Source: a virus
Virus record (IMG/VR): IMGVR_UViG_3300045988_166882
Length of the DNA stretch: 64,000 nucleotides
Strand: one strand, 5' to 3'
Positions 4,499 through 38,533 of the stretch are shown here, in pieces. Both the position numbers and the translations under genes were made by a program. Positions within the stretch are counted from its first letter, which is position 1, and each line of letters opens with the position of its first letter. The notes below the pieces were generated by a model, which saw only the letters and a program-made list of their open reading frames with translations, was not told where the DNA came from and did not search any database.

Positions 4499-4795
4499 AT
4501 GAAAGTGCAAGATTTTTACGGTGCGCTGGCCAAGAAGGCTGGTACCACCAAGGCTCAGGCGATTGAGTTCGTCCGCGCCCTCGAAGAGGTCCTCACCGAA
4601 GAGGTCCGTGACAAGGGTGAAACTATTCCGCTGGGTAAGGTCGGCAAGTTTGTCCTGAAGGACGTTCCGGCTCGTACCATGCGTAACCCCTTCACCGGGC
4701 AGGACATCGAGACTCGTGCCTACCGGACCATCCAGTTCAAAACGGCGTATGCCATGAGGGCCGACGCTGAAACCGCCAAAAAAGGCAAAAAGTAA
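4499..4795 (+). CDS. HU/IHF-family histone-like DNA-binding protein
   Basis: 98 aa. N-terminal helical segment plus the beta-arm signature PARTMRNPFTGQDIETRAYRTIQFK (RNPxTG motif of HU/IHF). Confidence 0.85.
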   Translation: MKVQDFYGALAKKAGTTKAQAIEFVRALEEVLTEEVRDKGETIPLGKVGKFVLKDVPARTMRNPFTGQDIETRAYRTIQFKTAYAMRADAETAKKGKK

Positions 4796-4840
4796 CCTGT
4801 AAAATAATTCATTTACTGGTATATTAGTTAGCTTTCGCAG

Positions 4841-4875
4841 TCCGTCAGGGAAGTGGTTTGCCCTGACGGATTTTT
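4841..4875 (+). terminator. rho-independent terminator
   Basis: Perfect 10-bp stem TCCGTCAGGG / CCCTGACGGA with a 10-nt loop, followed by TTTTT. Confidence 0.8.
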
Positions 4876-5531
4876 CGTTACTTTCGCGTCAACGTTATAC
4901 TACCTGAAACGAGGGAATGCTGACTTTCCATGCCAGTTAGTTTCGAGTTGCTATAAGCGAGTTTCTTTTCCAAAACAGGATCGGCCAACGCCGTGAAGGT
5001 TTGGTTGATCCAACTCTTAGCGTTCCCTCTACTTTAGCCAGAAGAGCGCTGGGGAGTCAAAGAGTGGCCACAATTTACTCCATACAGTATCTCGTTCCGA
5101 CCTCCGGGTCGGCTGGCACCAATACGGCTGGCCCGAAGCCGATCTCGATGAAACCAGCGGTGCGCACGCTGAGGGGCTACGAAGGATAGTAGCTGGGGTG
5201 AAATTCCCCGGTGAAGCCGGACGAAGTCGACGCCGATAGACAATAAAGAGCCTACGCTCACTCGGCTAATCGTTCTACAGACCACGACCTTCGCGGTCCG
5301 GCGAGGCCCTCCGTGGGTTGTGCGAGTAGAACGAGGGTATATCTCCACGGCTGGGGGGATCGGAGTTAGGCCTCCGTAAGGTGTAAGCCCTGACGCCAGC
5401 CAACGGGCCGCAAGGTCAAACAAATTGTCTCCAAGGCAGCAACGCAGACTTCCTCCATAGCGAGCGCCGGAGCGGAGGAGACAGACTCTAACTGGGGGAA
5501 GAGTATAAGCGATTCGTCGCGCCCCCTACGC
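4876..5531 (+). ncRNA. candidate large structured non-coding RNA / tRNA leader, family unknown
   Basis: About 650 nt with no credible ORF in six frames. It contains a dense series of GC-rich hairpins, some capped by UNCG or GNRA loops, and a 9-bp long-range pairing. It is bracketed by terminators and continuous with the tRNA. See findings. Confidence 0.35.
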
Positions 5532-5602
5532 TGATTCGTGGTGTAACGGTAACACACCAGATTTTGGTTCTGGCGTTGGAGGTTCGAATCCTTCCGGGTC
5601 AA
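5532..5602 (+). tRNA. tRNA-Gln (anticodon UUG)
   Basis: 71-nt cloverleaf folded by hand.
- Acceptor stem TGATTCG/CGGGTCA (2 G-U pairs; U1-A72 as in bacterial tRNA-Gln).
- D stem GTGT/ACAC with loop AACGGTA.
- Anticodon stem CCAGA/TCTGG with loop TTTTGGT.
- 4-nt variable loop.
- T arm GGAGG-TTCGAAT-CCTTC.
- CCA is not encoded. Confidence 0.9.
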
Positions 5603-5883
5603 CTCTAAGGGCTTTTCGCGAAGAGCCTACCGAAGATCGCTAACGCCGCTGGCTGCGCTTCGGGTCGTGATAACCGGAATCACGATGACGCCGCGGCAAC
5701 CATAACCCCGAAGGTCAGGGGTTCAAAGAAATTTCGTTCGTCATCGTTGTGGCAGTTCGCCCGCCCGGCCGGCATGGGGAAGATCAATAGGAACGGCAAC
5801 CGACGAGCGCGGGGCGCGAAATATCGCCCCGACCCTAAAAGTCTTAACAGACTTCCATCAATCAAAGGTTTAATTCACCCCGG

Positions 5884-5924
5884 ACCGCCCCACAGTAGCG
5901 ATACAGCGAGGCGGTTTTCTTTTA
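5884..5924 (+). terminator. terminator-like hairpin closing the tRNA/ncRNA region
   Basis: ACCGCC (5884-5889) pairs with GGCGGT (5910-5915), followed by TTTTCTTTT. The 20-nt loop is long, so this is a weak call. Confidence 0.4.
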
Positions 5925-5953
5925 CAACTATAAGGATGGAAAAGACTAATTAA

Positions 5954-6832
5954 ATGAAGATAGGAATAATATACAAATTAACCATTTTAGCGAAGTACAA
6001 GTTCTACGGACAACGCCCCTTTTATGTCGGTCAACACTGGGGAATGGAAGACTTTAACTCGTATTTTGGCGGAGGTACAATTTGGAACGATTTTCTGAAT
6101 GTCGTCAAAAAGGATTATCCGCTTCACTGGAAAAAGTTTGTTCGGCGTGAAATTTTATATCAAGGCGCGTGTGATCAACGTGCTTTGGACTTTCTCGAAC
6201 AGTATTACATAAAGCGCGAAATGGCGCATTATACCGAAGAGAAAGGCGGTTGCAACGTTTTACGTGGTACGGCGAATGCGTTTGGCGCTGGGAGTCCGAT
6301 GAAGGACGAAAATTGCAAAAGAAAGCAGGCTGAATCGTTGAAAAAGTATTATGATGAATACGGACATCCGTGTTTAGGTAAAAGGGCAACTCCCGAACTG
6401 CGTAAACGGTTGAGTGAAGCGCATCGAGGCAAGAAACTATCGCCAGAAACGGTTGAAAAGATACGTAAAGCCAACGCTGGAAAGAAACGAACGCCTGAAT
6501 TTTGTGAGTTGATGCGTGAAATGTGGCGTAAACGGAAAGAAGCGGGTTACGTGCCAAAGAATAGAGGGCGAAAAGTCCCCAGGGAAATAGTTGAAAAACG
6601 AGCCGCAGGGGTACGTAAATATTATGCCGAACACGCTTCATCGTTTTTAGGTAAACACCACACCGAGGCTACAAGGTTAAAAATTAGTGAAGCGAATAAA
6701 GGCAAGAAATTACCGCCTTTTTCAGCTGAAACGAAATTAAAGATGAGCCAATCAGCCAAAAAGGCGTGGGCAATTAGAAAACAACAAAATAATTACAATG
6801 CGTCGTTCGAATTATCTTGTAATGGACACTGA
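5954..6832 (+). CDS. GIY-YIG homing endonuclease with NUMOD3-like DNA-binding repeats (free-standing)
   Basis: N-terminal GIIYKLT...FYVGQH matches the GIY/YIG motifs. The C-terminal half has repeated helices ELRKRLSEAHRGKKLSPE, TVEKIRKANAGKKRTPE, EATRLKISEANKGKKLPP and ETKLKMSQSAKK. Visibly AT-richer than the flanks. Confidence 0.85.
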   Translation: MKIGIIYKLTILAKYKFYGQRPFYVGQHWGMEDFNSYFGGGTIWNDFLNVVKKDYPLHWKKFVRREILYQGACDQRALDFLEQYYIKREMAHYTEEKGGCNVLRGTANAFGAGSPMKDENCKRKQAESLKKYYDEYGHPCLGKRATPELRKRLSEAHRGKKLSPETVEKIRKANAGKKRTPEFCELMREMWRKRKEAGYVPKNRGRKVPREIVEKRAAGVRKYYAEHASSFLGKHHTEATRLKISEANKGKKLPPFSAETKLKMSQSAKKAWAIRKQQNNYNASFELSCNGH

Positions 6833-7466: not shown

Positions 7467-7515
7467 CGACCGCCAACGTTATACACCGTGTCTAACAACA
7501 AAACCGTATAACAAA

Positions 7516-8756: not shown

Positions 8757-11474
8757 ATGATGCCTCAAATTGCGATCCCGTCGTTGACGCACCGTTTGGC
8801 TTGTTTAGACCTCGTTGACGAGATAATCGAGGGTATGGACGAACGCGGCCTTAACGAGATGATGAGTGGCGATACACACGACGTTGACACGATATTTGAT
8901 GCTTTGATGATGGACACGTACCGGATTATGTATACTGGCGACGTGTCGATTGATTTTAAGCCCCGCTATGAAGAGAACGTCTCGGCCGTGGTTGAAGACA
9001 CCCTGCGGTGTGCCAATTTGACGTATTTCATCACCTCCGTCATCCCGGACTTCCAGCTGTCGTGGCACCACTTGGAGTGGGGTGAGTTAGTCCACAACCA
9101 CAAGAAATTGTGTATCAACGCAGCACGTGACCACGGGAAGTGTGAAGCCGTCGGAACCCCTGTCCGGATGTACGACGGAACTATCAAAAAGGTCGAAGAC
9201 GTTGTGGTTGGCGACTTGTTGATGGGCGTCGACTCTAAGCCCCGCCGCGTGGTTGCTACGCGCCGTGGCCACGATTCGATGATGTACCGTATCGACCAGT
9301 CGCGCGGTGATAGCTACACCGTCAACTCACGCCACATTTGTACGCTGATCGAGAAGGACCGCAACGGTTCCATCGCTACAGCGTCGAAGCGGATAGTGGA
9401 TATTGATATTCCGACGCTTTTAAGCAAGACCCCGAACTGGGTGAAGGAACGTTACCGCGGTTTCAAGGTGGCAGTGCAGTACCCCACGCGGCCCGTGGGG
9501 TTGGAACCATATTTTCTTGGGTACTGGTTAGGCGACGGCAACTCCAACAACCAGAAGATCACCACCGCCGACCCTGAAGTGTGTGAGTACTTACACTCTT
9601 ACGCCGAGCGCTTGGGGCTTCACTATGGCCAAAATGGTATGGTAGTGACACTTGGAATTGACGTTCGTGGCCGCGGTAAGCGTAACCCGCTGGAAAGGAT
9701 GCTCAAGGGTTACAACCTGCTCTACAATAAGCACATTCCGGAGCAGTACCTCGTCAACAGCGAAGAAGTTCGTCTTCAGGTGTTGGCTGGGTTGATCGAT
9801 TCCGACGGTAACTATTGGCAGGGCGGCTATCACTTCGGTAATACGAACTACCAGTTGGTGTGTGACGTGAAGAACTTGGCCGACAGCCTTGGCTTCTGTA
9901 CCCGAATGGGTGGTGGAACGCGGTATTGTAAAGCGTTAGGCCGCGACTATTCGTCGTGGTGCGTGACTATTTCTGGTGAACTGGACCGCATCCCAGTAAA
10001 GATCGCTCGTAAAAAGGTCCAAACCGACTGGGCCGCCAAGACGTCACACAAGGACTGGGGCACTATCGACGGCGTACACCCTACGGTGGTATCGTCGTTG
10101 AAGATCACGCCCGCGGGTGAAGGTGACTACATATCTATCACCACCGACGGCGACCACCGCTTCGTGCTGGGTGACGGTACGGTTACGCACAACTCGTTCT
10201 ATTTCTCCAACGCCTACGCCGCGTGGCAATTATACCGCTATAAGAAGCCGTCAACGACCCGTTACTCGAAGCGTCCCACGGTAGCGTCGTCGAATCGCGG
10301 CTTCTTGTTTTCGTTCTCACTCCAGCAGAGCGTTGACCTCTTGGAGATTCTGAAAGGAACCATCGAGGAAAACGAGATTTTGAAGGAACGCCTGCTACCC
10401 CAGTCCACGGCCAACAACTGGTCGGCTACCAATATCGTGTGCCGTAACGGCGCGCGTTTGACGGGTAAGGGTTTTGGGTCTTCGGTGCGTGGTGCTCACC
10501 CCTACTGGATTATCGTCGATGACGGCCTGAAGGACAACGTCATCTATTCCAGCCTCCAGCGAAATAAGTCTACCGACTATTTCCATTCCGTAATTATGAA
10601 TATGCTCGTACCCGGCGGCCAGATCGTTGTCGTCGGTACGCCGTTCCACGCCGAGGACCTTTACGGCGACCTCAAGACCAAGAACGGTTGGTTCGTGATC
10701 GAGTACCCAGCCATCTTCCCCGACGGGCGAATCCTTTGGCCGCAGCGTTGGTCGTTTAAGGACCTGATGGACAAAAAGGAGACCCAAGGCTCGATCATCT
10801 TCTCGCGTGAGAACCTTTGCCGCCCGATCACCAACGAATCGTCGATCTTCCCGATGGAAATCCTCACTCGGTCGTTGCTGCGTATGGAGAACTACACGTT
10901 GGTGGATTCACGCGAAGAGTTCCCCGTTAAGTTCTCCAAGGTAGTCGTGGGCTGTGACTTCGCTATGTCGGCCAACGTCGGTGCTGACTACGCCGTATTC
11001 AGCGTGTGGGGTATTGACGAACTGACCGACGAGCGTTGGCTGCTTCACCTGTGGCGTGAAAAGGGTGCCAAGTTCTTCGAACAGATGAACGTCCTGCGCC
11101 GTATCAACTCGCGTTTCCGGCCCGACCTGATCGTGATGGAGAACAACACCTTCCAGCAGATATTCGTCGAAACGGCCGACACTGAGGGTATGCCCGTGAT
11201 TGGCCACACTACGGGAATTGATAAGTACGACCTGAAGACGGGGTGGCCTCACCTGTCGACGCTATTCGAGCGGGGCAAAATCCACATCCCGGTGGGTAAC
11301 GTCTACTCTCAGCAGGTGAAAGACCTCATCTTCCAAGACCTCGGTTCAGTGGCCTTCACCGAAAAAGGCTTGGAAAGCGTGGGCAGCCACGACGATATTT
11401 CGTCGTCGTTCTGGTTGGCTGACTTGGCCGCTTCGCGTATGACTACGGGCTTTAAGTTTGATATGTTAGGTTAG
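8757..11474 (+). CDS. terL: terminase large subunit, interrupted by an intein
   Basis: Extein motifs:
- Walker A AARDHGK|S, split after K128.
- Walker B YWIIVDDG.
- Coupling motif VVVGTPFH.
- RNase-H-like nuclease acidic residues VVGCDFAMS and GSHDDISSS.
The extein is about 554 aa. The gene ends with TAG. Confidence 0.9.
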   Translation: MMPQIAIPSLTHRLACLDLVDEIIEGMDERGLNEMMSGDTHDVDTIFDALMMDTYRIMYTGDVSIDFKPRYEENVSAVVEDTLRCANLTYFITSVIPDFQLSWHHLEWGELVHNHKKLCINAARDHGKCEAVGTPVRMYDGTIKKVEDVVVGDLLMGVDSKPRRVVATRRGHDSMMYRIDQSRGDSYTVNSRHICTLIEKDRNGSIATASKRIVDIDIPTLLSKTPNWVKERYRGFKVAVQYPTRPVGLEPYFLGYWLGDGNSNNQKITTADPEVCEYLHSYAERLGLHYGQNGMVVTLGIDVRGRGKRNPLERMLKGYNLLYNKHIPEQYLVNSEEVRLQVLAGLIDSDGNYWQGGYHFGNTNYQLVCDVKNLADSLGFCTRMGGGTRYCKALGRDYSSWCVTISGELDRIPVKIARKKVQTDWAAKTSHKDWGTIDGVHPTVVSSLKITPAGEGDYISITTDGDHRFVLGDGTVTHNSFYFSNAYAAWQLYRYKKPSTTRYSKRPTVASSNRGFLFSFSLQQSVDLLEILKGTIEENEILKERLLPQSTANNWSATNIVCRNGARLTGKGFGSSVRGAHPYWIIVDDGLKDNVIYSSLQRNKSTDYFHSVIMNMLVPGGQIVVVGTPFHAEDLYGDLKTKNGWFVIEYPAIFPDGRILWPQRWSFKDLMDKKETQGSIIFSRENLCRPITNESSIFPMEILTRSLLRMENYTLVDSREEFPVKFSKVVVGCDFAMSANVGADYAVFSVWGIDELTDERWLLHLWREKGAKFFEQMNVLRRINSRFRPDLIVMENNTFQQIFVETADTEGMPVIGHTTGIDKYDLKTGWPHLSTLFERGKIHIPVGNVYSQQVKDLIFQDLGSVAFTEKGLESVGSHDDISSSFWLADLAASRMTTGFKFDMLG
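9141..10193 (+). mobile_element. intein (351 aa) with LAGLIDADG homing-endonuclease domain
   Basis: Begins at Cys (TGT 9141, CEAVGTPV). Has TVNSRHICT (block B), the two dodecapeptide motifs YFLGYWLGDGNS and LAGLIDSDGNY, and ends GTVTHN (AAC 10191-10193) followed by Ser+1. Confidence 0.85.
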
Positions 11475-11493: not shown

Positions 11494-12309
11494 ATGAAAA
11501 CTCTGATAGCACTATTCACCCGCGGTCGTATCGATCGCCAAAAGACCCTCCAACGGCTCACGCCTCAGGCGCGCCGCCGCGTGACGGTATTCTGTCACCC
11601 CGGCGAGTTGGCTGCTCACCAGCGTAACTGGGGCGGTGAGGTTGCCGCCATCGAGGAATACAGCACTGCGTGTCGCGGCGTGGGGGACATACGGGACTAC
11701 ATCGTTGTAGAGGCCCAAAAGCGGGGATTTGGCGGAGTCTTTTTCTTAGACGATAACGTGTCTTTCTCGCTGCGTTTAGACGATGCCAAGACCCCCGTGG
11801 TGGTAAACAACGACAATTTCACCGTCGAGGCCCAAGAATACATCTATTCGATGATGTTCGACTGGGTGGCGGAGCACTTGGACACCTACGCCGTCGCCGC
11901 GCTTTCGTATCGGCCCTTTAACCGCGACAAGGAACACGACGTACAAATCAACGGGCGATTCTTCTCCATTTGGGGACTGAACATCGCCCAGTACCTCAGC
12001 CAGCCCGTGAGGTTTCGCGATTGGCCTATCAAGGAAGACTTCGCCGTGGCTTGCGGTTTACGCCGCGCCGGGCTGGATAACGTGGTGTCGTACCAGTATT
12101 CGTTCGACAAGATGACCGGAGCCAACGCCGCTGGCGGTTGTTCCGTGTACCGCACTATCGAGAACTCCAACGCCGAGTCACAACGTTTAAGGGAAGAGTT
12201 CCCCGAATATATCACCCTTCGTACCAAGAAATGTACCAATTGGGGGGGTGAAATGAAGGACCGTGAAATGATTGAAGTTAAAATACACTTAAAAGGTTAC
12301 AAGAAATGA
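11494..12309 (+). CDS. GT-A-like (DxD) glycosyltransferase candidate, paralogue of 29682..30485
   Basis: Shares block order with the 29682 ORF:
- N-terminal strand LIALFTRGR vs FFVVSKNRP.
- Acidic turn FFLDDN vs VVMDDD.
- EDFAVACGL vs CDIDYSLKC.
- ANAAGGCSVY vs ANQGGGLQDVY.
Family assignment is not verified. Confidence 0.45.
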   Translation: MKTLIALFTRGRIDRQKTLQRLTPQARRRVTVFCHPGELAAHQRNWGGEVAAIEEYSTACRGVGDIRDYIVVEAQKRGFGGVFFLDDNVSFSLRLDDAKTPVVVNNDNFTVEAQEYIYSMMFDWVAEHLDTYAVAALSYRPFNRDKEHDVQINGRFFSIWGLNIAQYLSQPVRFRDWPIKEDFAVACGLRRAGLDNVVSYQYSFDKMTGANAAGGCSVYRTIENSNAESQRLREEFPEYITLRTKKCTNWGGEMKDREMIEVKIHLKGYKK

Positions 12310-12869
12310 TCGTAAAATTCAAGAAAGTACACCCCGACGCCGTACTGCCGCACTACGCTCACCCCGACGGTGAGGACAACGGACTGGACTTGGTTGCCGC
12401 AGCCGTTTTCGAGTCCGACGACTACATCGAGTACGACACAGGTATCGCCGTTGAAATCCCCAAGGGGTACTGCGGCCTGTTGGTCCCGAATTCACGTTGT
12501 TCGAAAAAGGACCTCGTGATGTGTAACGCGCCGGGTATCATCGACCCCGGATATCGCGGTACGATGCGTGCCCGCTACAAGAAGGTTTGGCACCTTCCGA
12601 CGCTGCTCCATAAGTTCCTCCGCAGCGTGTGTACGTTGTTCTCGAACGCCTTCGGTGAAATAGCCGGGTTGCGTGCACAGGAAATCAATTTCGACGTCAA
12701 GCAGTTTGAGGTCGGTGAGGTAGTGGCCCAGTTGGTTATCATCCCCGCGCCGCAGATCGAGGTTGAGGAAACTGACACGCTGACGCCTTCGATGCGTGAC
12801 ACCGCGGGGTTCGGTTCGACGGTAAAAGCGGTTCCCGAGAGCGAACGTGTTCAAAATGCCGAAAAATAG
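12306..12869 (+). CDS. dut: dUTP diphosphatase (trimeric dUTPase) with an internal insertion
   Basis: Motif I NGLDL, II PNSRCS, III GIIDPGYRG, IV GEVVAQLVI, V RDTAGFGST. About 40 extra residues sit between motifs III and IV. Confidence 0.85.
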   Translation: MIVKFKKVHPDAVLPHYAHPDGEDNGLDLVAAAVFESDDYIEYDTGIAVEIPKGYCGLLVPNSRCSKKDLVMCNAPGIIDPGYRGTMRARYKKVWHLPTLLHKFLRSVCTLFSNAFGEIAGLRAQEINFDVKQFEVGEVVAQLVIIPAPQIEVEETDTLTPSMRDTAGFGSTVKAVPESERVQNAEK

Positions 12870-16752: not shown

Positions 16753-16789
16753 GGCCCCGATTCGTAAGCGTTTCGGGGCCAACGTTTTT
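16753..16789 (+). terminator. rho-independent terminator
   Basis: Perfect 8-bp GC stem GGCCCCGA / TCGGGGCC with a 12-nt loop, then AACGTTTTT. Confidence 0.65.
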
Positions 16790-16795
16790 GAGCGT

Positions 16796-17110
16796 ATGGA
16801 CCGATGGAGATATTTCAAAATAGGTGATATCGTCACCGACCCCGAAGTGTGGGGAAAGACGATGTTCGTAATACGCACGCTGCACGGTAACGACTACTGC
16901 CCGCTGATCAGTGGCGAGTCCCTAAAACCGATCCGCGGTCGCCGTATAAGGGTAAACCTCGGCGTGGGGGAGACGCGTCTTGTAAACGCTCCTAAACGTC
17001 CGTTGATGAAGATTCCCGACGGTACGTTGGTGCGGTTAGCTGGAAAGAGCGTTGAAGCGCGGCGCGAATTGTTAATTAGAAGCTATCGTAAACAATATGG
17101 CAACGTTTGA
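16796..17110 (+). CDS. hypothetical protein (104 aa)
   Basis: ATG ORF after the terminator. No motif recognised. Confidence 0.5.
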   Translation: MDRWRYFKIGDIVTDPEVWGKTMFVIRTLHGNDYCPLISGESLKPIRGRRIRVNLGVGETRLVNAPKRPLMKIPDGTLVRLAGKSVEARRELLIRSYRKQYGNV

Positions 17111-18107
17111 CCATTATGCTTGGGCTGATAAACTACCCGACGCGTCGCTCGACGTGAGCGCAGAACACCACACGGAGTTCTTCCGGACGATGTTCGAGCG
17201 TCAGATGATATGGAAACGGCGGTTCTTAGATCAGGCTCCGCGCCCGTGGACTGAAGACCCCATACTACGCGACTACAAGTTTACCAACGTCTACCGCGAA
17301 CTGGACCGAAACTCCCAGTGGCAAATACGTAATATCCTACTCGATGACGGGTTGACGCTGGCGAATCTGGTGTGGAAGATGATGGTGTTCCGCTATTTCA
17401 ACAATCCCGCCACGTTCGAATACGCTCGCGAAAAGTACGGTTGGGGAGCCGGCATCCCGGATCACGACCAATACGACGAAGACCTCTTTGCCGAGATGAT
17501 AACGTCGTACCGCGCTACGGGTAACAATCCCTATACTACGGCGTATCTGATCAATTCGATGGCCACGCCCGGTAAGCCGCGCGACTACTGCTACACGCAC
17601 TTGGTCGTCCCGACGCTTCACCGTCGGTTAGGCGAACTGATGCGGACGGTGTTGACGGCTGACACTCCGGAGCAGATCATCAAGTTCCTTCAGAGCCTTC
17701 CTTCATCGGCGACGTTTATCGCTCACGAATTCTACCAAGACTTCACCTACATACCGCGTTACACCTATCGCCGTTTTATGCGTTTCACCCAAGACGACTA
17801 CACCAACGTCGGTCCCGGCGCGTCCATAGGGCTGCGGCTGGTGTTTCCGTCGTTGAAGTGCCAAATTGACGGTATCTACCGTTTGCGTGACGAAGCCCGC
17901 GAGGCTCTTCAGCAGTGTGGAGACTTTCCATACCTACATTGGGATCGCGCAGGGCGTTGCTACCGGGTGTCGCGCTGCGGCGACGTGACGCTTCATCAAG
18001 TTGAGATGTGGCTGTGTGAGTACCAGAAGTACTGGAAGATGAAGATCGGCGAAGGGAAGCAACGCTCAATCTTCGAACCGCGAACTCGTAAAATTGTAGG
18101 CCAATGA
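17097..18107 (+). CDS. candidate DNA thymidine-hypermodification enzyme (aGPT-Pplase / 5-hmdU-DNA-kinase helical-domain-like)
   Basis: N-terminal block RPWTEDPILRDYKFTNVYRELDRNSQW matches my recollection of the signature of the predicted alpha-glutamyl/putrescinyl-thymine pyrophosphorylase and 5-HMUDK helical-domain families. There is no P-loop. Not verified by search. Confidence 0.45.
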   Translation: MATFDHYAWADKLPDASLDVSAEHHTEFFRTMFERQMIWKRRFLDQAPRPWTEDPILRDYKFTNVYRELDRNSQWQIRNILLDDGLTLANLVWKMMVFRYFNNPATFEYAREKYGWGAGIPDHDQYDEDLFAEMITSYRATGNNPYTTAYLINSMATPGKPRDYCYTHLVVPTLHRRLGELMRTVLTADTPEQIIKFLQSLPSSATFIAHEFYQDFTYIPRYTYRRFMRFTQDDYTNVGPGASIGLRLVFPSLKCQIDGIYRLRDEAREALQQCGDFPYLHWDRAGRCYRVSRCGDVTLHQVEMWLCEYQKYWKMKIGEGKQRSIFEPRTRKIVGQ

Positions 18108-27122: not shown

Positions 27123-28051
27123 TTTTCAACAATCGCCAAATAGACGACATGGTCGGCATTCTCCGGCGTTGGCAGTACCTGTTTATTGCCAAGCACGTCG
27201 GATTAGACTTTCTGACCCAGTCGGAGATCGACATCTTGGTGGCGTCAGGGGTCAACGTCGATAAGTACAAGAACACGAAAGGTATCATCGAACACGCTTT
27301 TCTGTTCGGTATCTTGGCTGAGGCACTCGGCGATCAACGCGCCAAGAAGATGAATTACAAGCAGTTTCTCCAGTACCTCAAATCAGGAAACTTCGTTCCG
27401 CTCACCGAGCAGGAGGAGAACGCGCTGAATTATCTCAAGAACCGCGCCTACACCGACATCACGTCGCTCGGAAACCGTATCGTTACCGGTACGCGCAACG
27501 CCATCCTCAAATCTAACTTTCGTCAGCAAGCCGCCATACGCCAGCAGATCAAAGATAAGGCCATGCAAGCCGTCCAACTGCGTAAGGGGGCGCGGTATAT
27601 AGCCAGCGAATTGGGGAACCTTACCCAAGACTGGGGACGCGATTGGCTGCGTATTGCGTACTACCTTCTGCACGAAGCCTACAACGTGGGCCGCTCGGAA
27701 AGTATCTACAAGCAGTATGGCCCCGACGCTATGGTGTATTTCGACGTATACCCCGGCGCGTGTGCCAAATGCCGCGAGTTGTACTTGGAGGACCCCGAAG
27801 ACCCTAATTCGAAGCCAAAACTGTTCCGCCTCGGAGACCTTATCGCCAACGGTAACAATATCGGCCGTAAGGTGGCTGAGTGGCTTCCTACGATCGACCC
27901 GACGCACCCCTACTGCCGCTGTACTATCAACCACGTACCGCCGGGGTACGAGTGGGACCCTGAAACACGCGCTTTCACCAAGCCTGTCAAGCGTCAGTTC
28001 AAGAACCCAAAGTTAAGGAACGTGAAACTCAACATTAAAGTAACAAAATAA
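27119..28051 (+). CDS. head morphogenesis protein, SPP1 gp7 / Mu F-like
   Basis: C-terminal LPTIDPTHPYCRCTINHVP carries the HPxCRC signature of the family. The start is taken at the ATGA overlap (27119) rather than track start 27089. Confidence 0.7.
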   Translation: MIFNNRQIDDMVGILRRWQYLFIAKHVGLDFLTQSEIDILVASGVNVDKYKNTKGIIEHAFLFGILAEALGDQRAKKMNYKQFLQYLKSGNFVPLTEQEENALNYLKNRAYTDITSLGNRIVTGTRNAILKSNFRQQAAIRQQIKDKAMQAVQLRKGARYIASELGNLTQDWGRDWLRIAYYLLHEAYNVGRSESIYKQYGPDAMVYFDVYPGACAKCRELYLEDPEDPNSKPKLFRLGDLIANGNNIGRKVAEWLPTIDPTHPYCRCTINHVPPGYEWDPETRAFTKPVKRQFKNPKLRNVKLNIKVTK

Positions 28052-29010
28052 TGAAAAACAAAATCGTACAAGACCCCCCGTTCACCATGCAGATCGAGCC
28101 GACCGAGGGTTGTAACTTGGGGTGTTCGTTCTGCGGCCTTCACGGCATGCGTGAAAAGGGTACCAAACCGTGGAATTTCATGACCGTCGAAACCGCCGAG
28201 CGTATCGCTTCTGAGGTAGCGCGTGTGGGCTGGAATTGCAAGTTCGTGTTCGCTATGCACGGCGAACCCACGCTCAACCCGGCGTTCATCGACATCGTGG
28301 CCACGTTCCGCAAGCACTTGCCGAAGGCCGTGTTCCATATGTACAGCAACGGCTACGCCATGAACCACGCCGACGACACCGAGGCTTACCTCGACCGCCT
28401 GTTCGGCGCTGGCATGAACGACATCTTGGTGGACTGCTACACCGCCAACGGCGACTGGAATTTCGTCGAGAAGATCGATGTCGATAAGTACAACGTCGTC
28501 ACGCTGGAACCGGGCGTTCCGTACTACTACCCCAAGCAGGGCCGTCGTATCTGCTTGCTGCCGCCCATCGCCCAGGACGATACCAACAAGATGACGCGGC
28601 GTCTGGCCAACCACTGCGGCGCGGCGTTCCCGCTCGACGATTCGTTCAACAACAAGCGTTGTACTTTCCCGTTCCGGGAACTGGACGTGCGCTGGAACGG
28701 TCAGGTCTGCTTGTGTTGTGACGACTTCCGCGGTGAGTACCCCATCGCCAACATCCACGACATGCCCATCGAAGACCTTTGGAACCACCCGCGCTTCCAC
28801 GCCGCTCGCGTGATGCTGTACAATAACGACCGCCGCTTCCGCCCGTGTCAGGGGTGTACGCACGTCAGCGTTCGCGTTGGCTTCCTGCCTGACAAGAAGG
28901 GTAAGCAGACGCTGCCGGCTATCACGCCCGAAATCCGCCGTATGGCTGAAGAGGTATCGAAGGACGGCCCCTGCGCCGAGAAGATTTACCGACGGCCATG
29001 GGAAAAATAA
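28051..29010 (+). CDS. radical SAM enzyme with C-terminal Cys-rich (SPASM/twitch-like) extension
   Basis: EPTEGCNLGCSFCG contains CxxxCxxC, and HGEPTLNP resembles the SAM-binding motif. C-terminal cysteines: CTFPF...CLCCDDF...CQGC. The start overlaps the MuF stop (TAATG). Confidence 0.85.
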   Translation: MKNKIVQDPPFTMQIEPTEGCNLGCSFCGLHGMREKGTKPWNFMTVETAERIASEVARVGWNCKFVFAMHGEPTLNPAFIDIVATFRKHLPKAVFHMYSNGYAMNHADDTEAYLDRLFGAGMNDILVDCYTANGDWNFVEKIDVDKYNVVTLEPGVPYYYPKQGRRICLLPPIAQDDTNKMTRRLANHCGAAFPLDDSFNNKRCTFPFRELDVRWNGQVCLCCDDFRGEYPIANIHDMPIEDLWNHPRFHAARVMLYNNDRRFRPCQGCTHVSVRVGFLPDKKGKQTLPAITPEIRRMAEEVSKDGPCAEKIYRRPWEK

Positions 29011-29681: not shown

Positions 29682-30485
29682 ATGGATTGTCAATTCTTCG
29701 TCGTGTCCAAGAACCGCCCCAAGTGCGTCACGACCAAATTGTTGGAAAAGGGCGGCGTCGACTACCACATCGTGGTCGAAAAGGAAGACGTTGAAAAGTA
29801 CGTCGAAGCAGGTCACGACCGTAAGCGGTTGATCGTACTACCAGCGTCGAACCGCGGCTACAGCTACGTGGTCAATTTCTGCAAGAACACCTACCTCCGC
29901 GCCGGGCGGCCTGTGGTGGTGATGGATGACGATATCGCCAACTTCTTCTACTCGATCGACGGCGAAGCCAAATGCGGCCTTTCGCTGAAGACCCCAGAAG
30001 AACTGTCAGAGTTCTTTGAAGAGTTCAACCGCGAAGTCATGGAGACCGACTTCGAGTACGGCACCATGGGCAAGAGCGCCTTCGACTGGAGTTGTACCGA
30101 CGTCAGCCCGCGTTTCAAGTACGGCGGTATCCCTCACCTCATCGTGTTCAAAGGGCTGCGGACGCTGGAGTTGGACTTTGACGAAAAGTTGGAGTTGAAG
30201 TGCGACATCGACTATTCGTTGAAGTGTATGTATCTGGGCATCGTCTACGCACGCTTCGTACGCTTCCTTCTCCAGAGTAAGATGAACAAGGAGGCAAATC
30301 AGGGCGGCGGCCTTCAAGACGTGTACGAGCGTCAGGAACGTGTTCAGCGTGCTCACAACATCATATTGAAGCGGTGGCCGCTGAACGCCCGTGTCGATGA
30401 CAAGAAGAAGCCCATCAACGGCGTACCGGAGTTACGTATTGTGTACAAGAAATTTGATATTGACTTTGATGCGGTGGAGGTGTAG
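29682..30485 (+). CDS. GT-A-like (DxD) glycosyltransferase candidate, paralogue of 11494..12309
   Basis: FFVVSKNRP...HIVVEKEDV...VVVMDDDIANF...ANQGGGLQDVY. See the entry at 11494. Family not verified. Confidence 0.45.
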   Translation: MDCQFFVVSKNRPKCVTTKLLEKGGVDYHIVVEKEDVEKYVEAGHDRKRLIVLPASNRGYSYVVNFCKNTYLRAGRPVVVMDDDIANFFYSIDGEAKCGLSLKTPEELSEFFEEFNREVMETDFEYGTMGKSAFDWSCTDVSPRFKYGGIPHLIVFKGLRTLELDFDEKLELKCDIDYSLKCMYLGIVYARFVRFLLQSKMNKEANQGGGLQDVYERQERVQRAHNIILKRWPLNARVDDKKKPINGVPELRIVYKKFDIDFDAVEV

Positions 30486-37809: not shown

Positions 37810-37813
37810 AATA

Positions 37814-37845
37814 AATCCCCCTCCTATTAAGAGGGGGATTTTCTT
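37814..37845. terminator. bidirectional rho-independent terminator between convergent genes
   Basis: Perfect 10-bp stem AATCCCCCTC / GAGGGGGATT with a 7-nt loop. T-rich on the + side (TTTCTT) and A-rich upstream (T-rich on the minus strand). Confidence 0.8.
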
Positions 37846-38533
37846 AGATATTGGCATACACACCTTTAATCCGCAAAATATCAGATGGATTACCTAAATT
37901 GTTTGATGTTACAACTACTTGTAATCCCTGAATCCCTTTCGCTCCTGTCACAACAGAAGCAACATTCAAACGGATTTGCCCGATATTAGTTCCGGACGCA
38001 ATACTTCGGGTGTTCAAATCCATAAGTGTTGCTGCTTGTACGGGATTAAAGAACGTTACAGGAATAGCCACTGATCGAATGTCAGCATTGGGACCAGCCG
38101 ATGATCTGAGTTCGGCGTCAATGAACATTGCCGTACTGTTGATGACCTCATAGTTAAAATTCACAATCATCAAACTCCCTGCTGATAATGCCAAGTCATA
38201 TTGATTGGCTATTTTGGTAAATCCGGGGATAGGGGATGCAAAGGTACCAATGGGGGTCAACATGGTCTCCATTACGTCACCGCTATTGTTCATCAGCACT
38301 TCTCCCCGGTAAGCGATCCGGCCTGATGTTTCCCATATTGTGAAGGTTAGTCCAATGTGTTGATAATCTCCGCCATCATACACACGCTGGGCATATCCAA
38401 CAATAGTAGATTCAGCCTGCGGAAAAGAAGCGTTTTTGATCTGAGGTAATTGATCGTATATATCGGATGACGGCTCTATGAATACAGGCACTATTTCGCC
38501 ATCCTTATCCCACGAGTGATTTTCAACAATCAT
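37844..38533 (-). CDS. alternative tail-fibre C-terminal cassette (only minus-strand gene), likely silent/5'-truncated in this orientation
   Basis: The 229-aa ORF aligns block by block with the C-terminus of 35614..37359. The homology continues 24 codons upstream of its ATG, up to position 38605, in an open frame with no start codon. Confidence 0.6.
   Translation of the reverse strand: MIVENHSWDKDGEIVPVFIEPSSDIYDQLPQIKNASFPQAESTIVGYAQRVYDGGDYQHIGLTFTIWETSGRIAYRGEVLMNNSGDVMETMLTPIGTFASPIPGFTKIANQYDLALSAGSLMIVNFNYEVINSTAMFIDAELRSSAGPNADIRSVAIPVTFFNPVQAATLMDLNTRSIASGTNIGQIRLNVASVVTGAKGIQGLQVVVTSNNLGNPSDILRIKGVYANI

Follow-up and report, generated by a model that had tools for sequence, protein, structure and literature searches.

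What kind of element is a kilobase of phage DNA that encodes no protein and carries a single transfer RNA (tRNA) gene in its interior? The question is raised by positions 4796–5953 of a stretch of 64,000 nucleotides (nt), hereafter the window, taken from the IMG/VR virus record IMGVR_UViG_3300045988_166882. This locus (1158 nt) contains only short, unconserved open reading frames (ORFs) and is the longest non-coding stretch of the plus strand in the window; the only longer stretch without plus-strand ORFs (37810–38515) holds an ORF on the minus strand. An initial annotation, made from the sequence alone, had described here an ORF-free region of about 1 kb, bounded by two terminators, dense in hairpins and enclosing a tRNA-Gln, and had proposed a large structured RNA in the manner of the GOLLD and ROOL classes. 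The ORF-free region, its bounding terminators and the enclosed tRNA are borne out by the comparison with related loci described below, whereas the size and likely family of the RNA had been overstated: the conserved RNA consists of a leader of ~230 nt and a separable 3' domain of ~190 nt. On balance, we consider it probable that the locus is a self-contained non-coding transcription unit, in which tRNA processing would yield the tRNA together with two structured RNAs.

Relatives were collected by two routes, 22 loci from IMG/VR through HU-like and exonuclease protein anchors and 27 metagenome loci through an 18-nt pattern from the core described below, and conserved columns were counted over the 36 distinct units contained in these 49 loci. 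An ORF-free unit of 600–1160 nt, with a tRNA-Gln at the same position, occurs in all 49, so that the case allowed for in the initial annotation, an intact protein gene in the homologous phages, is encountered in none of them. The related contigs are ~100 kb long where assembled, and derive from human-gut samples wherever the source is named. Translation is excluded because the relatives differ by insertions or deletions (indels) of 1, 2 and 4 nt; a coding reading of the frame through the core was rejected on account of frame-breaking indels among relatives, and a 68-residue ORF at 5747–5953 was rejected as a gene owing to such indels and to the lack of a start codon.

The strongest constraint falls on the segment directly 5' of the tRNA. 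It comprises an invariant core (5426–5486, plus strand), in which block 1 (5426–5453, 28 nt) and block 2 (5460–5486, 27 nt) are separated by a variable linker of 6–8 nt, and an H-type pseudoknot (5485–5526, plus strand). The core is present in 49 of 49 loci, with 28 of 28 columns invariant in block 1 and 24 of 27 in block 2, the sole change being one 3-nt deletion in locus L167. In the pseudoknot, stem S1 is formed by ACUCU (5485–5489) and AGAGU (5500–5504) and stem S2 by GGGGG (5494–5498) and CCCCC (5522–5526), and loop 3 holds an invariant AUAA (5505–5508) and a UNCG hairpin, S3 (5509–5520). This fold is supported by the alignment: 99.5% of cells are paired, as compared with 43–62% in slid controls, six of the 16 pairs show compensatory changes, and none of 500 shuffles was as good, with the covariation in S1 resting on one sequence, L130. 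The motif AGTATAA (5502–5508), earlier put forward as a start signal ahead of the tRNA, overlaps the 3' strand of S1 and the A-rich loop and is better accounted for as part of the pseudoknot. After a spacer of 4–6 nt among the loci (5527–5531 in the window) follows the tRNA-Gln(UUG), placed at 5532–5603 on the plus strand by ARAGORN and by the Rfam tRNA model (61.2 bits), with its CCA end not encoded. The tRNA is present in all relatives, and its acceptor stems differ between lineages yet remain complementary.

Invariant columns number 48 of 72 in the tRNA and 66 of 150 in the 3' domain (domain E, below); the core and the pseudoknot are more conserved than the tRNA itself. Because they are so, and because they always lie directly beside the tRNA, the functional centre of the unit is likely to reside in them. 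The neutral sites of the flanking genes are much less identical, with 0.60–0.73 of the fourfold-degenerate sites shared between the window and other lineages in the exonuclease gene and 0.44–0.59 in the HU gene, which argues for strong selection on the invariant blocks. Within the core, UGUCUCC (5426–5432) can pair with GGAGACA (5476–5482), and a helix proposed earlier between 5451–5456 and 5474–5479 also falls within invariant sequence. A 17-nt complementarity of 5509–5525 to the hairpin at 5811–5827 is not kept in relatives and was treated as chance. The pentamer GGCAG (5445–5449 and 5751–5755 in the window) recurs at conserved, apparently unpaired sites of three modules, namely the core (AAGGCAGCAA), a linker hairpin loop of other lineages (GUGGCAG, L004) and the 3' domain (GUUGUGGCAGUUCG), and may be a repeated protein-binding motif.

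The alignments further establish that the unit is modular, its optional parts being gained or lost as units closed by their own helices. Common to all relatives are the promoter-like motif, domain A, the two invariant blocks, the pseudoknot, the spacer and the tRNA; dependent on lineage are the hairpin 4978–5011, domains A2, A3 and B, the hairpin 5406–5417, linker D and domain E. The leader accordingly ranges from ~230 nt in the shortest relatives to ~620 nt in the window copy, in which 4978–5011, 5125–5341 and 5604–5734 are lineage-specific expansions, and 5125–5341 alone makes up about one third of the copy.

Domain A (4911–5029, plus strand) is closed by a 12-base-pair (bp) long-range helix (4911–4922/5018–5029), into which the 9-bp pairing recognized initially (4911–4919/5021–5029) can be extended. 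Found in 46 of 49 loci, and shorter and interrupted in the L009 type, this helix carries compensatory changes at two positions, with GC, AU, UA or GU at position 5 and CG or UA at position 11. The interior of the domain holds a conserved U-rich string, UUCUUUUCC, and, in the window lineage only, the inserted hairpin 4978–5011. A reading of GAGGAAAC... and ...ACAGAC as resembling ribonuclease P (RNase P) RNA was rejected, as the strand pairs locally and no RNase P model matches. Domain A2 (5037–5117, plus strand), present in about one third of the distinct sequences, is an optional three-way junction closed by GCCAG/CUGGC; it includes the hairpin 5097–5112, which is kept in relatives as the initial annotation would lead one to expect, and RNAalifold assigns to it 20 pairs, four of them with compensatory change, all from the divergent L022 lineage. 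The expansion A3 (5125–5341, plus strand), bounded by CGGCUGG repeats, is confined to the closest relatives (25% of the distinct sequences, 98% identical), among which there is no variation to judge its helices; in L001, a different helix-closed arm stands in place of 5176–5215. The same holds for the other helices drawn earlier at 4978–5011 and 5666–5684, which, like the four within 5125–5210, belong to modules confined to the closest relatives and free of variation.

In domain B (5342–5417, plus strand), GGCUGG (5349–5354) pairs with CCAGCC (5396–5401) and encloses UUAGGC (5366–5371) paired with GCCCUGA (5387–5393), and a possible extra stem between UCUCC (5342–5346) and GGGGA (5355–5359) would form a pseudoknot. 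Pairing occurs in 92.5% of cells, as compared with 17–43% when the partners are slid by 1–3 columns, three pairs are compensatory, and one of 500 shuffles was as good. The domain, missing in the L019 and L009 lineages, includes an optional GNRA hairpin (5406–5417) that had been noticed before; relatives retain it, the loop being GAAA or GUUA and one pair compensatory. A further hairpin drawn at 5374–5381 falls away, its stem being only 2 bp. The string GUAUAAG (5503–5508), with its counterpart GUGUAAG in domain B of the window (5383–5387), lies just ahead of a helix's 3' strand in the pseudoknot as well as in domain B, and the two may be structural paralogues.

On the 3' side of the tRNA, the variable linker D (5604–5734, plus strand) forms, in the window lineage, hairpins at 5610–5627, 5664–5686 and 5706–5721. 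At least three unrelated versions of it exist, about half of the distinct sequences can be aligned, and other lineages have a two-hairpin module of ~70 nt closed by CCCCC/GGGGG and followed by a U-run, or no linker. The 3' domain E (5735–5884, plus strand), which together with the terminator makes up the conserved 3' part of ~190 nt, has a closing helix between CGUUCGUC (5735–5742) and GACGAGCG (5802–5809), hairpins at 5810–5831 and 5839–5854, and an invariant interior (GUUGUGGCAGUUCGCCC ... CAAUAGGAACGGCAAC). It is paired in 99% of cells; the closing helix has three compensatory pairs and the hairpin 5810–5831, which retains the stem first seen at 5811–5830, has one, and these pairs trace mostly to one lineage split. 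The hairpin 5839–5854 is substituted by other complementary sequences in other lineages. Directly after the terminator lies a free-standing ORF for a homing endonuclease (5954–6832, plus strand), outside the RNA unit, with NUMOD3 recognized by Pfam and a GIY-YIG-like N-terminus by eye. Such a NUMOD3 gene occurs in 6 of the 22 IMG/VR relatives, always at the junction that follows ...TTTTACA, and in L010 and L181 an ORF of ~100 residues and a homing-endonuclease gene replace the 3' RNA domain.

The ends of the unit are clearly marked. Its 5' limit is the intrinsic terminator of the upstream HU-like gene (4841–4875, plus strand), with a 10-bp perfect stem, a 10-nt loop and T5, which is kept in all relatives through C/T–G/A changes that preserve pairing. 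The unit ends with an intrinsic terminator at 5885–5923 (plus strand), composed of an imperfect 11-pair stem (5885–5914) and UUUUCUUUU and 100% paired among relatives, with two compensatory pairs. Both had escaped a simple terminator scanner owing to their loop and stem geometry. In L012 and L020, the terminator interior (orthologous to 4851–4860 and 5892–5907, respectively) is exactly reverse-complemented with the stem kept, and these inverted interiors look like the result of hairpin-flip events.

Just inside the 5' limit is a promoter-like motif, CAACGTTAT-N5-CTGAAA (4890–4909, plus strand), with 15 of 20 columns invariant. Exact CAACGTTAT occurs in the window three times on the plus strand (2844, 4890 and 7474), always in intergenic sequence, and not at all on the minus strand, and a near-copy lies at 16780. 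Of 12 relatives inspected, most retain it in all three orthologous spacers, with the flanks diverging around it, and L010 has a 1-nt variant at the site of the RNA unit. Taken more broadly as CAACGTTAT(A/T), the motif has sites at 2844–2863, 4890–4909, 7474–7482 and 16780–16788, on the plus strand and in intergenic sequence only, followed 4–6 nt later by YG(A/T)AA. It probably represents a class of phage promoter unlike the sigma-70 or the Bacteroidetes consensus; since CAACGTTAT is most simply a promoter, the transcript would probably start just before the helix that opens at 4911–4922. The start signal first suggested, TTTG-N18-TACTTTCG, is not sustained, its TTTG lying in the terminator loop and being altered or inverted in relatives.

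Several features agree on the strand and the nature of this element. That the RNA is made from the plus strand is indicated by its G-U pairs and its GNRA and UNCG loops as well as by the tRNA and the two terminators, and the invariant blocks, the compensatory changes and the gain and loss of domains as helix-closed units argue against a decayed gene or a random spacer. In the predicted course of events, transcription from the CAACGTTAT promoter (4890–4909), after the terminator of the upstream gene, would run for ~1 kb to the terminator at 5885–5923 and produce a primary transcript composed of a structured 5' RNA (4911–5526), the tRNA-Gln(UUG) and a structured 3' RNA (5735–5923). Host RNase P would then cut at 5531/5532, and 3' processing would take place after 5603, the tRNA serving as a built-in cutting signal, so that a functional tRNA-Gln would be set free along with two distinct structured RNAs. 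At its 3' end, the 5' RNA would carry the A-rich pseudoknot of triple type, 5 nt from the cut, and the 3' RNA the terminator hairpin, both ends being suited to withstand 3' exonucleases. It is most likely that the core and the pseudoknot would act as a binding platform for a protein or for the translation/tRNA machinery during infection.

The predicted processing has parallels in otherwise unrelated systems. In MALAT1/mascRNA and in small RNAs from bacterial tRNA spacers such as 3'ETS-leuZ, RNase P/Z is directed by a tRNA or tRNA-like fold to a cut that sets free a further functional RNA, and the new 3' end of MALAT1 upstream of the RNase P cut is shielded by a triple-helical structure. The A-rich pseudoknot located 5 nt upstream of the presumed cut in the phage unit recalls this arrangement; however, both sequence and organism are unrelated, and the processing and end protection in the phage are inferred. 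The species 1 and 2 RNAs of phage T4 (rnaC/rnaD) are small stable RNAs of unknown function that are co-transcribed with tRNAs and released by tRNA-processing enzymes, and the T4 tRNA region also holds a GIY-YIG homing endonuclease, SegB. The present unit is comparable in that its RNAs would share a transcript with a phage tRNA and in the GIY-YIG-like endonuclease of the tRNA region, but no sequence similarity to the T4 RNAs was found by blastn, and its RNAs are larger and modular, with an invariant core and a pseudoknot.

The unit is also narrowly distributed. The close relatives include no cultured phage, the best tblastn identity found for the neighbouring exonuclease being ~31%, and blastn against 50,697 phage records returned only tRNA-Gln matches (Bacteroides and Phocaeicola phages), the matched tRNA belonging, where annotated, to an ordinary tRNA array (LoVEphage). 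An exact scan of viral contigs for the core pattern recovered the same 22 loci and two chance matches, and 34 further stretches with the pattern in metagenomes, which a profile of the core region did not recognize (nhmmer, E ≤ 1e-5), are likely chance matches. None of 185,579 bacterial genomes contains the core, the seven matches there being chance 21-mers inside GC-rich sequence, four module profiles gave no nhmmer match in 56 more distant related loci, and no module has dispersed copies in these phage genomes, A3 being single-copy. Judged from these searches, the RNA unit is specific to one clade of gut phages.

A number of observations weigh against the interpretation of the locus as a transcription unit with additional functional RNAs. 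Where transcription starts, how the transcript is processed, how stable the products are and whether any of them acts in trans are all matters of inference. The minimum folding energy of 4876–5531 has a z-score of −0.58 on the plus strand and +0.22 on the minus strand, and that of 5118–5350 is −0.29, no better than shuffled sequence, which leaves the earlier description of the region as hairpin-dense without support from folding energy. The core blocks offer no variation on which to judge their internal fold, and a search of the 64-kb window for antisense targets of the conserved segments gave 14 matches of at least 11 nt, where ~16 are expected. Domain E is missing in L010 and L181 and replaced by a different trailer in L009, L011 and L144, and for this reason it is either dispensable or a separate unit. 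In distant relatives (exonuclease ~50% identical), the unit is absent, the gap upstream of the exonuclease being shorter than 380 nt; their tRNA-Gln, where present, is packed tightly between ORFs, so that the flanks are not required for tRNA-Gln expression in general. Finally, the sampled diversity amounts to a single genus-level phage clade, many compensatory changes derive from one or two lineage splits, and covariation statistics are modest. The compensatory changes are therefore few; found in the closing helix of domain A, in A2, B, the pseudoknot, domain E and the terminator, where the initial annotation had called for covariation among homologues, they provide support that is solid but not deep. 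Of the large structured RNA originally envisaged, what stands is a conserved, selected and structured non-coding RNA of the plus strand with a tRNA inside, and what does not is a single conserved fold of ~1 kb.

The same observations bear on other explanations, among which one that ascribes to the flanks a role only in cis deserves the most attention. The flanking structures would then regulate the pre-tRNA in its timing, folding, processing or stability, for instance by using the pseudoknot 5 nt upstream to modulate the access of RNase P, and would have no role after cleavage; the long processed tRNA precursor that the initial annotation had offered as an alternative is compatible with all findings and forms part of the explanation we favor. 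The core and the pseudoknot are always attached to the tRNA at 4–6 nt, the three occur together in 49 of 49 loci, and the 3' domain can be lost, all as a purely cis-acting role would have it. However, other phages, the distant relatives included, express tRNA-Gln from compact genes without such flanks, and 55 invariant nt and domain expansions of up to 700 nt exceed the needs of known tRNA leaders. Nor does the core have special complementarity to the tRNA, 346 of 500 shuffles binding it at least as well, and we regard an exclusively cis-acting role as rather unlikely. The locus might instead be a self-cleaving ribozyme, HDV-like (resembling the hepatitis delta virus ribozyme) or of a new type, that aids tRNA processing. 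Minimal HDV-like ribozymes are known beside tRNAs in gut phages, and the cleavage site of theta ribozymes lies no more than 5 nt to either side of a tRNA 3' end (PMC10879173). The phage element resembles them in adjoining a tRNA in a gut phage and in its GC-rich pseudoknotted fold, an extreme invariance over ~55 nt is typical of catalytic cores, and the only recurrent Rfam signal other than the tRNA, a weak one on the pseudoknot, comes from the HDV-like CPEB3 model. All these scores are far under the threshold of 35 bits (16.8 bits in the window, 20.6 with E 0.007 in L019 and 20.5 with E 0.009 in L004), and the other HDV-like families and the hammerhead, twister, pistol, hatchet and hairpin models give no match at E ≤ 10 in the sequences searched (4700–6100 of the window, L019, L009 and L004, with relaxed filters). 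A nested double pseudoknot was rejected because AGAGU, the would-be P2 strand, pairs with the upstream ACUCU, with compensatory change in L130, and not downstream, its pairing with sequence 3' of the tRNA not being conserved; the fold is thus a simple H-type pseudoknot. The hairpin aligned with P3/L3 has a loop varying from 2 to 6 nt and a long insertion in L001, which is incompatible with an active-site loop. Unlike theta, the element is found on the 5' side of the tRNA; on the 3' side, the first 60–110 nt, inspected by eye in four lineages, disclosed no theta-type P1/P2/P3 arrangement. A ribozyme is on these grounds very unlikely.

The comparison with known families leads to a similar assessment of the GOLLD and ROOL classes, giant ornate RNAs that form multimeric cages and of which the unit might be a divergent member. 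GOLLD has a less conserved 5' region, a conserved 3' region and a linker sometimes containing tRNAs, both classes are found near tRNA islands, and ROOL, found in phages and prophages, has a complex pseudoknotted structure with no known protein partner or function (PMC12286853). The present unit shares with GOLLD its origin in a phage, a size of ~1 kb, the link to a tRNA, a variable 5' part, a tRNA-holding middle and a conserved 3' part, as well as several pseudoknots and helix-closed peripheral domains, and with ROOL the phage origin, the tRNA link and the pseudoknotted fold. Its universally conserved part is, however, small (~230 nt and ~190 nt), with the core far smaller than that of GOLLD and immediately 5' of the tRNA; the 3' region universal in GOLLD is dispensable here in some lineages, domain E being missing or replaced in at least five loci; and no tRNA enclosed at a set spacing from an invariant core is known for ROOL, whereas the present unit has one and is confined to one gut-phage clade. 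When covariance models of Rfam 15, which include GOLLD and ROOL profiles, were applied at their gathering thresholds, only the tRNA was detected in the window and the relatives. In the relaxed search of the window and the three shorter relatives, GOLLD, ROOL, RNase P and transfer-messenger RNA (tmRNA) models remained without match at E ≤ 10; riboswitch models gave none, ARAGORN found no tmRNA, and the sole intron-model match, a group-II-D1D4-1 fragment (E 8.7, 15 bits as compared with a threshold of 35), was treated as noise. The families named in the initial annotation, group I and II introns included, thus fail in the models. The resemblance to GOLLD and ROOL is limited to context and layout, membership in either class is highly improbable, and, by the models available, the unit belongs to no described family. 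It remains to consider a function at the level of DNA, such as an origin, a packaging site or an endonuclease target, or decayed genes or a decayed tRNA array. The locus is set among DNA-metabolism genes (HU-like and DEDDh exonuclease) and precedes the terminase by 2.8 kb, its 3' edge is the insertion site of a mobile endonuclease gene, and related gut phages have tRNA arrays near the terminase. Nevertheless, it is GC-rich (0.57–0.61, as compared with ~0.53 nearby) and has no iterons, origin-like repeats or AT-rich tract, its compensatory changes, G-U pairs included, are sensible only in a plus-strand RNA, and a promoter-like motif stands at one end and a terminator at the other. An endonuclease target would account for tens of bases beside 5924–5953 and not for 1 kb, decay is contradicted by the invariant blocks, and a decayed array finds no support, as no weak tRNA-like match appears at E ≤ 10 besides the real tRNA. 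Such an element is extremely unlikely.

As to the genome that carries the unit, the window encodes a portal, a head protease, a major head protein and a terminase, and it belongs to a tailed phage with hypermodified DNA, which probably carries modified thymidine or cytosine. The large terminase gene (8757–11474) is split by an intein, with a Hint domain and a LAGLIDADG homing endonuclease recognized by Pfam. Genes for DNA hypermodification, at 11494–12309, 17097–18107, 28051–29010, 29682–30485 and 12306–12869, encode two TET-associated glycosyltransferases, a 5-hmdU DNA kinase, a radical-SAM/SPASM protein and a dUTPase/dCTP-deaminase-like protein. The upstream neighbor of the RNA unit is the HU-like gene (4499–4795; Pfam Bac_DNA_binding). 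A second ORF-free stretch, at 2480–2880, has a strong strand skew and ends at the promoter-like motif at 2844; it contains an extremely C/T-rich low-complexity tract (~2545–2615), a hairpin (~2622–2650) and a CA-rich tract. The sole sizeable minus-strand ORF (37844–38533, 229 residues) has no Pfam match, the other long ORFs being tightly packed on the plus strand.

To our knowledge, few RNAs are less well understood than the large structured RNAs of phages such as GOLLD and ROOL, whose association with tRNAs still lacks an explanation. The present unit offers a compact and clearly bounded case, with a promoter-like motif, a terminator and a fixed spacing that separates the tRNA from the invariant core and the pseudoknot, and its relatives constitute a natural 'deletion series', in which leaders range from a minimum of 230 nt to an expanded 700 nt and the 3' domain is present, swapped or absent. 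The relationship between a phage tRNA and its ornate neighbors thereby becomes directly testable. We speculate, as a tentative extension of the transcription unit proposed above, that it represents an undescribed class of ornate phage RNA with an embedded functional tRNA, in which the 55-nt core and the pseudoknot would be the active center, either catalytic or a specific site to which the ribosome, a tRNA enzyme or a nuclease of the host defence would dock, and the flanking RNAs, possibly as GOLLD- or ROOL-like assemblies, would act in trans and not be a mere by-product. The unit is a candidate family new to current RNA libraries. Even if it were an elaborate pre-tRNA only, the strong selection acting on the flanks of a tRNA would still be unusual.

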